Shown here: one piece after another, positions 1 to 3,000 of the stretch
Layout: every line of letters begins with the position of its first letter
Numbering within the stretch: the first letter of the stretch is position 1
IMG/VR virus record: IMGVR_UViG_2713896782_000011
Length of the DNA: 6,801 nt
Direction: 5' to 3' (one strand)
Origin: a virus
Taxonomy: Duplodnaviria; Heunggongvirae; Uroviricota; Caudoviricetes
Made by a program: the position numbers

Positions 1-3000
1 CGGCGTCAGATCCTTCACCTTAGCCAGTCGCTGCCAGTCATCGTCTGACAACGGGTTTGCATAGGCGTCACCCTGACCGTTATAAACCCACAGGGTGGTA
101 CCGGCTCCTTTTACCGGCTCCAGGGGAATTCGTGTTTCGGCTTGACGTAGCCCGGACGTAACACGCGGGTTTCACCACCGCGATGACGCAGCACTTTTCC
201 TTCAACAACCGGGGAGACATAGGCCGCCACCGGCGTTTTTCCGGTAATTTTGTCCAGCATCACCTCTTCGGTATGGAAATTCACCGTACGGCGGAAAAAC
301 AGCTCCAGAAACAGCGCACGAAATTTCACTTTTTGTTCGGTATAACCGAGTAACTGGCGGGTCGTAAACAATCCCATAAATCAGTTCCTTTCATTCAGAA
401 ATCAGTCAGGCCACCGCGGTGGCCTGATAACGTGTTACGGCAGCGCCGCGTGACTCAGGGCACTGCCGGCAAAGGCATTTGCCTTTTTGTGTTCATCCAC
501 ACTTTCAGGCCAGCGGATTGCCTCCGTCGCAAAGGTCCCCGACTTGTAATAGGTCAGTACCGTCTCTGTGCCTTCAAGCGGCAGTACCAGTATGCCAACT
601 GCACTACCGGCTTTCTGTCCGTCCCAGACCACCAGTTTCCCGCTGGCTTCATCCAGCATCAGGGGCGTCAGTGCCGGTGTTGCCGAGGAAATCCCGCTGC
701 TGCCTGTGGCGGTATGAGCCGGATCATTACCGGCAAAAATACGTACTTCCGCACGCTGTTCAGTGATGTTTTTCGTTACCATATTGTAAAAACCTCCTGT
801 TGATGGTCAGCACTGACTTCATGGCATGGCCATGAGCATTTTCACGTCCGCATCACCGTCTGCTGACGTCTGTGGCACGCCACCCTGTACCGCAGCCGGT
901 GAATGGTTCGCCATGATGCGTTCAAACAGGGCGGTTGTGGATGCAGAGACCGGTTCTGCCTTACCTGATCCCGCAGCCAGCACAGCCCGGGCGCTCTCCA
1001 CAGTCATTCCCGGGCAGGCAGCCAGCTGTTCAGCCTGCGCCTCAGCCCCTTTTGCCTCATCCAGTGCCATGATCTGATCACGGAGTGAGGGTCCGGCATC
1101 CGCCTGCGGTGAAGCAGCCAGGATCGGGCGGGCTTTTTCCACCGTCATCTCCGGCATCGCCGCCAGCGTTGCCGCCAGTTGTTCACGACCGTTCGCTTCT
1201 TCACACGCCATAATGCGATCGGCTTCACTCTGCGTGGATGCCACCGGCTGCTGCGGTGCCGCCGCGGCCAGAATCGCCCGGGCCTGTTCAACGCTCATGC
1301 CCTGTTGTCCTGCCAGCATCGTGGCAAGCTGTTCACGTCCTTTCGCTTCCTGGCATGTCAGGATCCCCATCACTCGCTGGTTCTCCTGCGCGGCGGCTTC
1401 CGTTGCAGTTAATTGCGGCATAGTGCCTCCTCTGACATTACTGTTCAGCGCCGTGGCCATCACACTGATGGCATCCGACGCATTGACTAATTCATCCGCC
1501 AGCCCGGCATCAATGCCGGACTGACCTTCAAAAACGGCGGCCTCTGTTCCCGTGACGGCATCAACAGACAGACCGGTAAACATGGCCACTTTTTCGGCAA
1601 ACATCCGGCGCGCCGCATCAATGCGCTGCTGCATGTTCTGGCGAACCTCTGCCGGTAAGGCTTCAAACTGATTGCCATCCACCTTGTGCGCCCCTGAGTA
1701 AATCAGCGTGATATCCACACCGGCCTGCGCCAGATGACCGGCATAGCTGACATGGCTCATCATCACGCCAATGGAGCCGATACGGGATGTCTGGGTAACC
1801 AGCCGTCGGGAGCAGGCCGACGCCAGCAGCATGGCTGCAGAACAGGCCGTGTCATTGCACAGTGCCCAGACCGGCTTCTGCTGACGGAGGCGGTAAATCA
1901 TGTCAGCGCAGTCAAACGCGCCGGCGGCCTGCCCGCCCGGACTGTCAATGTCCAGCAGTACGCCCCGCACCTGGCTATCCGCCATTGCCTGCTGAAGACA
2001 GGCGACAATGCCGTCATAGCCTGTCATTCCGGAAAATGGCCGCATACCCCCCAGCCGGTGCACCAGCGTGCCGGTCACCGGCAGTACAGCAATACCGTTC
2101 ACCACCCGGTAAACACGGGCCGGTCGTTTACCTCCGGCCATGTACTCGTCCGTTTCAGCCAGCATTCCGGGAGCATCAAGCTGTACCTGCTGCTGTGGTA
2201 CCGAAAGACTTGCTGCCCCCATCTCGCGCCCGAGCGCGCAAAAGAAAACCCGCGCATAGGCGGGCTCCAGAAGCAGCGGTTCATTGAATGCTGCGGCAAT
2301 AATGTGTGAAAGATTACGTCTCACGGGGTGTTGTCTCCTCTTCCGGCCTGCGACTCTCCGCTATCTGCTGCTGATACGCCTGCGCTATCCACACCGGACG
2401 TGAGAGTCCGGCTTTTTGCCGCTCTGCAGATTCCCTGACCTGCTGGCGGAAAATGTCCTGATAATCCTCGCCCATCAGCGCCGGCTCTTTCTCATACGTG
2501 CTCAGTCCGGCCTCAATGCGCATCACCGATTCCTGAACCTCCTTGAGCCCGTCAATGGCCATTCTTCCGGCACCAATCCACTCTGCCCGTGACCAGGCTG
2601 ATCGCGCCTGATAAAAATCAAAACGCGCCCGTGGCGGACGGATAATCCCCCGAAGAAGTGCCTCTTCCAGCCAGTAGGAAAACATCTGCGTGGCCAGCCG
2701 GGCCGCAATAAATTTTCGCCGCCCCATAAAATAGCGCCACGACTCATTGGCAGAGGCCCTGGCACTTGAATAACTGACCTTCGAGTAATCACGGGACAAC
2801 TGTTCGTAGGAAACGCCAAGACCGGCGGCGATATACCGCAGCAGCGCCTGTTCAAGCGCCGAAAATCCATTGTCTGAATCCTGCGCAGTCTGTAGTTTCA
2901 GATCATCCCCGGGGAAAAGGTGCGGAATTTTGACACCACCCAGCGTCACGTTATTCGTGTCATACCAGCTGGAGAACTTCTCCAGAATATTAATAAGCGG

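Follow-up and report, generated by a model that had tools for sequence, protein, structure and literature searches.

Why should the scaffold part of a phage head gene contain the same module three times over, and is this arrangement peculiar to the virus in which it was noticed? The question arose from a stretch of DNA of 6,801 nucleotides (nt) assigned to the Caudoviricetes (IMG/VR record IMGVR_UViG_2713896782_000011), which we refer to in full length as the window. It carries a lambda-type head gene block, every gene being on the minus strand. A sequence-only reading had pointed to an expanded tandem repeat in the C-terminal part of a gene resembling lambda C/Nu3, which encodes the head maturation protease together with the scaffold. 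We consider it likely that the feature is a triplicated module of about 50 amino acids (aa) in a phage-21-type protease/scaffold gene, analogous to lambda C/Nu3 and residing here in a defective lambdoid prophage of the O157:H7 type, and that the module probably serves interactions of the scaffold.

The repeat lies at 897-1376 on the minus strand, corresponding to aa 317-476 of a 501-aa open reading frame (ORF), and contains the same peptides that the sequence-only reading had quoted. The C-terminal region of the protease consists of three diverged tandem units of 47-53 aa (R1, R2 and R3; coordinates in Table 1) followed by a short stub, 'ERIMANH'. The three units and the stub start at aa 317, 370, 417 and 469, so that the periods are 53, 47 and 52 aa (159, 141 and 156 nt), slightly longer than the 45 aa or 140 nt that had first been estimated. 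A hidden Markov model (HMM) built as a profile from the three units has three matches in the 501-aa protein. When the units are compared in 15-aa windows with the BLOSUM62 matrix, the best scores are 56 for R1/R2, 50 for R1/R3 and 47 for R2/R3, against a mean of 27 (standard deviation 3.4) and a maximum of 43 when the 206-aa tail of the protein is shuffled 1000 times; the three diverged copies are thus confirmed. The partial fourth copy that had been proposed is a different matter: the stub is present, and its position is kept after the single unit of lambda (where it reads 'DRLMQGA') and of phi80, but its score of 25 is not significant by itself.

The repeats had also been described as visible in the nucleotides, which holds in a weak form. 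An alignment in codon register gives 55-62% identity between units (z = 6.5-8.6 versus codon shuffles), and their third codon positions are identical in 34-42%. Codon register was used because a global nucleotide alignment of the units with free gaps could not be distinguished from shuffles. A repeat finder detects a 15-nt seed at 910-924, 1066-1080 and 1207-1221 (spacings of 156 and 141 nt) and nothing in the region beyond such short seeds of 12-22 nt, while Tandem Repeats Finder reports no tandem repeat at 897-1376. Low identity of the DNA combined with significant repetition of the protein means that the duplication is old and has been maintained as protein. The repetition is a protein-level feature.

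The same repeat can be found in the public record of phage 21. The window gene is 98.6% identical in nucleotides to gene 5 of phage 21, with which it is colinear without insertions or deletions, and 100% identical to copies in Escherichia coli O157:H7 chromosomes. In GenBank entry M81255.1, which we take to be the record of Smith & Feiss 1993, a nested gene 6, for a scaffold of 200 aa, begins at the Met that corresponds to M302 of the window protein; annotated within it as repeat_region are a 'Tri1 box', a 'Tri box' and a 'Tri3 box', marked 'function unknown; putative'. The entry can be mapped to the window with a fixed offset of 682, with just scattered mismatches from about 127 to 3824; this places the Tri1 box at 1251-1354 (within R1), the Tri box at 1104-1214 (R2) and the Tri3 box at 960-1073 (R3). 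Going by the feature table of that entry, the repeat is already known as the Tri boxes of phage 21. Genes 5/6 of phage 21 and the window gene have in common the three units, an internal ribosome-binding site (RBS) with ATG, and the neighbours portal, shp/D and major capsid; they differ in about 1.4% of their nucleotides, and the window copy is in a defective chromosomal prophage with a capsid gene cut after codon 83. The exact 501-aa protein is listed in 10,658 index blocks. As a discovery the feature therefore has little weight, because the phage 21 entry in GenBank already shows the triplication and the gene belongs to the most often sequenced of E. coli prophage genes; it is ordinary, and very common in E. 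coli.

Whether three units are nevertheless an expansion depends on what related proteins contain. In a search of 1.84 billion representative proteins with the unit profile, 470 representative clusters match. Among the best 150 of these clusters, 56 proteins are full length (at least 380 aa): 54 with a single unit, one with two and one with three. Lambda gpC (NC_001416) has exactly one unit (aa 357-400; 51.9 bits, 3.3e-18) before its stub, in agreement with the sequence-only reading, and phi80 likewise has one unit and a stub. In the proteins compared, one unit is the family norm, and three units are a real expansion. The expansion is neither recent nor special to the window, since three units also occur in phage 21, in Salmonella Gifsy-1 (498 aa) and in the diverged representatives P0121, P0123 and P0124. 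The sequence-only reading had attributed about 60 extra residues relative to lambda to the repeats; the difference is indeed 62 aa, but as a net value, the two extra units adding about 100 aa and the linker upstream of R1 being 36 aa shorter than in lambda. Counted from the homologous start, the scaffold would have 131 aa in lambda, 137 aa in phi80 and 200 aa in the window. The lambda C/Nu3 and phi80 gene 5/6 products otherwise share the S49 protease, the nested co-terminal ORF with its Shine-Dalgarno sequence and ATG, the unit and the trailing stub.

Comparisons between individual units indicate how the triplication came about. R1 of the window is 72-80% identical to R1 of Gifsy-1, P0121, P0123 and P0124. 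The R2 units are 68-78% identical across lineages, and the R3 units 59-75% among the three lineages (59-61% for the window against Gifsy-1 and P0121). Within one protein, R1, R2 and R3 are 46-53% identical, with R2 at 52-53% to its own R1 and R3. Because units are closest to their positional counterparts, R2 and R3 must have arisen by tandem duplication before the lineages split, and they have been kept since. The lambda and phi80 units group with R1, at 64-67% identity. Judged from these identities, the ancestral unit is R1, of the lambda type, and the two others were inserted between it and the stub. Phage 21, Gifsy-1 and other lineages share an ancient triplication that is orthologous copy for copy. 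The Gifsy-1 gpC homologue (STM2605.Gifsy1), from a phage of another host genus, has the three units in the same order, with identities to the window of 73% for R1, 78% for R2 and 59% for R3. The unit cores are 61-81% identical between the two and the protease part 70%, while everything that follows R3 (linker, stub and tail) falls to 15-33% (33% for the C-terminal tail). A norm of one unit and an ancient, copy-for-copy triplication together argue that each unit is functional. Independent duplications are found in other lineages, some of them recent: P0129, P0133 and P0134 have nearly identical adjoining units, and P0166 is a distant two-unit protein.

What, then, might the unit do? Over 60 diverse units, the near-invariant positions are I, E-A-x-G-R, A, L-A, A and L, and the unit consensus, ..EAxGRE..LA..PGMTVExAxxILAAAP.., is present three times in the window protein. 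Pfam and NCBIfam contain no model for the unit; it is covered by PHROG families that bear the names head scaffolding protein, capsid assembly protein and head maturation protease. Structures were predicted with AlphaFold2 (AF2) for the 200-aa nested protein as a single sequence and for R1 with an alignment of the three units. For every unit AF2 gives two helices, the first of about 21-30 residues and the second of about 10, joined by a turn of 3 residues at P/Q-G-M, so that the helix-turn-helix expected for each unit is borne out as a prediction. The terminal helix that AF2 places in the tail corresponds to residues 189-197 of the Nu3-like protein.

A helical hairpin in a scaffold has precedents. 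The scaffolds of P22 and phi29 have helix-loop-helix structure (PMC3185693), and in P22 a helix-loop-helix motif is reported to control binding of the capsid protein (PMC11922011). Lambda Nu3 interacts with E, with C and with itself, according to two-hybrid and literature data (PMC3224144). Because of these parallels, we infer by analogy that the unit is probably an interaction module of the scaffold, used for capsid protein binding or for self-association. It would fold into a long and then a short helix with a turn (P-G-M-T/S) between them, and would bind the major capsid protein on its inner face or join scaffold to scaffold. As the protease has the scaffold's C-terminus, it too would be brought into the procapsid by the module and would then degrade the scaffold. 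With three units, the phage-21-type scaffold would be multivalent, whereas lambda would make do with one unit and a longer N-terminal linker. Like the coat-binding domain of P22 and the phi29 scaffold, the unit is predicted to form a short alpha-hairpin in the scaffold part expected to touch the capsid protein. Unlike them, the window scaffold has three tandem copies instead of one and is fused in frame to a protease; homology of the unit to the P22 and phi29 scaffolds is detectable neither in sequence nor in fold.

The suggestion that repeat number could affect the size of the capsid is not supported. Three-unit phages have genomes of 42.9-54 kilobases (kb) and a 342-aa major capsid protein; for comparison, the one-unit phages lambda and phi80 have genomes of 48.5 and 46.2 kb, and the lambda capsid protein has 341 aa.

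Unit number also differs among near-identical alleles in E. coli. Alleles of 451/452 aa have two units as a result of R1/R2 fusion, with three crossover points (P0085, P0095 and P0090). In a 482-aa allele (P0038; 8001-9449 in loci L010 and L011), R2 is without its second helix owing to a 19-aa deletion between short LAA-coding homologies; this allele is very widespread, being listed in 3592 index blocks, and of the E. coli alleles returned by the protein search it is the most frequent. Alleles of 551 aa with four units are represented by P0002 (locus L007, 8001-9656) and P0003. In L007 an ambiguous base N is located exactly at the duplication junction, and P0003, from another contig, has the same junction; the four-unit allele, unconfirmed at present, may be an assembly artefact. 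P0001, with 657 aa, has a tandem duplication of 156 aa that comes from one assembly only, and is likewise unconfirmed. One unrelated lineage has a recent, nearly identical unit duplication. The alleles with 4 and 2.5 units are located in complete head modules (terminase, portal, D and the 342-aa capsid protein), and around P0038 the head and tail module otherwise looks complete. The two-unit allele keeps its downstream genes; one of its loci is without portal and terminase upstream and the other begins at a contig end. Shortened alleles are absent from isolated phages in the phage collection, where 20 of the 20 with full coverage have three units. Junction queries of 66 nt over 5,426 E. coli genomes did not discriminate between alleles, since half-matches of ordinary alleles were joined and reported as 100% covered. 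It is conceivable, though we would not count on it, that scaffold unit number is a naturally variable and evolvable trait, with recombination between diverged units having repeatedly produced 2, about 2.5 and perhaps 4 units. If the variant alleles still build heads, they are a ready-made natural series in which the role of scaffold valency in lambda-type procapsid and head assembly can be tested without engineering.

The window copy itself comes from a prophage that has lost part of its head genes. The match to phage 21 stops below about 127 in the window, and the capsid gene (start 377, minus strand) is cut after codon 83 (...KPKHEF). Codon 83 is joined to about codon 5 of the major tail (V-like) gene, the rest of E together with FI, FII, Z and U being deleted. 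The O157:H7 strain PV15-279 has the same junction, annotated as an incomplete capsid gene, and in the loci retrieved the junction accompanies the exact 501-aa protein, including two loci in one chromosome. From this gene content, the prophage is defective. With the major capsid gene truncated, the window copy of the protease/scaffold is probably a relic and probably builds no heads any more, even though its ORF is intact.

Several of these observations weigh against an interaction module and have to be set beside it. Confidence in the AF2 models, expressed as the predicted local distance difference test (pLDDT), is modest at 64 for the nested protein and 73 for R1 (about 90 in the core), and the alignments were shallow. 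Unit profiles matched no natural chain in the PDB, the P22 and phi29 scaffolds included, and a Foldseek search of the 200-aa model against the PDB returned every match at E > 3; the connection between unit and capsid binding is one of analogy. The gene adjoins a truncated capsid gene in the window, and near-identical alleles with two units or a shortened R2 occur widely among E. coli prophages whose head genes otherwise look intact, so that three units may not be required. This last point leads to a different explanation, in which the units are a disposable spacer, or a cassette for cleavage by the S49 protease at Ala-rich ends and linkers (ILAAAAPQ, ILAASPQ, VLAAGSG), and copy number is nearly neutral and drifts by unequal recombination. 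S49/SppA-type proteases favour small aliphatic residues, and drift would fit both the occurrence of 2, about 2.5, 3 and possibly 4 units among near-identical alleles, with at least three R1/R2 crossover points, and the loss of half of R2 from the commonest allele. Such drift is hard to reconcile with three units kept copy for copy since before the split of phage 21 and Gifsy-1. The core identities of 61-81% between these two, together with the saturation of synonymous sites between units, indicate purifying selection on each unit; conservation is strongest in the helices (EAxGRE, LA, A..ILAA) and not in the linkers alone, and all isolated phages of the lineage in the collection have three full units. 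We therefore regard a spacer or cleavage cassette as unlikely, and an interaction module of the scaffold as the better account of the unit.

The remaining explanations concern nucleic acids. The second half of the unit (LAxxPGMTVExARxIL) could be taken for a DNA-binding motif of the helix-hairpin-helix kind, by which the scaffold or protease would contact DNA. R3 has a weak match to Pfam HHH (E = 0.0021, 18.3 bits, under the gathering score of 24 bits), and the non-significant Foldseek matches, none of which, as noted, has an E-value of 3 or less, include chains of RuvA and RecR. Among the 60 diverse units, however, one matches HHH and two match HHH_5 at E <= 0.1, unrelated helix-turn-helix families being matched equally often, and the G-h-G hairpin signature is missing, with GMT in its place. 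Lambda-type scaffolds, moreover, are gone before DNA is packaged (PMC3224144), which also counts against DNA binding. With one matching unit in 60 and a sole recorded score below the gathering score, helix-hairpin-helix was rejected; we consider it highly improbable. Slightly less probable still is a role of the repetition at the level of DNA or RNA, as regulatory sites or structured RNA. Two 'CII binding sites' annotated in OL657228, a newer phage 21 record, do fall within the region, but they are mere consensus matches; the units are kept as protein, with third positions near random and no tandem repeat in the DNA, and an Rfam search of the window gave no match. Among the readings considered, the scaffold interaction module remains the one that we favour.

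The assignment of the gene itself is straightforward. The 501-aa protein contains a peptidase domain of the S49 (SppA-like) family, and the SppA entries 3rst/4kwb in the PDB match its aa 77-290 at about 5e-16. PHROG 53, 'head maturation protease', matches at 1e-227. The CSA and HKVDG segments, where we presume the catalytic Ser and Lys to be located, are kept between the protein and lambda gpC. The gene is positioned between a lambda-family portal gene and the genes for D-type decoration and E-type capsid proteins, as in the lambda head operon. By domain and gene order, 819-2324 is a lambda-type C/Nu3 protease-scaffold gene, as the sequence-only reading had proposed.

M302 is the putative internal start of a scaffold that is co-terminal with the protease. 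A putative internal start of the form AGGAGG-N4-ATG, with a perfect Shine-Dalgarno sequence, is common to the window (1419-1431, minus strand), Gifsy-1, phi80 and lambda (at M309); M81255.1 has an RBS annotated at the equivalent site, and both M81255.1 and OL657228 have gene 6 or 'scaffolding protein' annotated at the colinear position. In phi80 the annotated gp6 (137 aa) begins at the Met homologous to M302. PHROG 8399 ('head scaffolding protein') and PHROG 8940 ('capsid assembly protein') each have three matching stretches in the 501-aa protein. The features of the window are collected in Table 1.

Table 1. Features of the window, in order of position (coordinates are window positions; aa numbers refer to the 501-aa protein)
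Feature	Position	Strand	Remarks
E-type major capsid gene, start only	start at 377	minus	
D-type decoration protein	435-782	minus	PF02924
gpC-like head maturation protease/scaffold, 501 aa, GTG start	819-2324	minus	ORF; phage 21 gene 5 equivalent
Putative nested Nu3-like scaffold ORF, 200 aa from M302, same frame and stop as protease	819-1421	minus	phage 21 gene 6 equivalent
C-terminal tail, aa 475-501, end ...DADVKMLMAMP	822-902	minus	poorly conserved; short terminal helix predicted
Stub 'ERIMANH', aa 468-474, like first residues of a unit	903-923	minus	15-nt seed family; predicted helix aa 461-473
R3, aa 410-461, core aa 417-452	942-1097	minus	unit HMM 94.3 bits
R2, aa 363-409, core aa 370-405	1098-1238	minus	unit HMM 89.8 bits
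R1, aa 311-362, core RVMGIL...ILAAA aa 317-355	1239-1394	minus	unit HMM 88 bits
Shine-Dalgarno AGGAGG, 4 nt 5' of internal in-frame ATG	1426-1431	minus	sequence 'cagAGGAGGcactATG'
S49 (SppA-like) peptidase domain, aa 146-293	1446-1889	minus	Pfam PF01343 Peptidase_S49, 2.8e-35
Lambda-family portal	2314-3906	minus	PF05136
gpW-like gene	3903-4109	minus	
Large terminase	4093-6078	minus	

A few further observations concern annotation. In the lambda reference NC_001416, nu3 is annotated from M239 (201 aa), where there is no comparable Shine-Dalgarno sequence. The start conserved and annotated in phage 21 and phi80 is a different one, and on the evidence of these sequences NC_001416 may have the start of lambda nu3 in the wrong place. 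The 'CII binding sites' of OL657228 are at 1851-1864 and 2085-2098 of the locus, approximately 1169-1182 and 1403-1416 on the plus strand of the window; they derive purely from the pattern ttgyN6ttgy, and no supporting sign was seen. One unit profile (A2) weakly matches designed helical tandem-repeat chains in the PDB, namely 4yxx_A, 9rar_A and relatives (dTor_6x35L, TRP variants), with 'LGVSLEQALKILEVAA' aligned to 'PGMTVEQAKAILAAAP', a resemblance that probably reflects convergence on an idealised sequence of loop plus helix. A masked stretch of 50 N at 6248-6297 breaks the gene for a Nu1-like small terminase (minus-strand ORFs 6237-6560 and 5993-6235). For the large terminase, the mechanically called ORF starts at an upstream TTG (661 aa), and the product of 642 aa in related loci fits the ATG of 'MNISEQQL...'.

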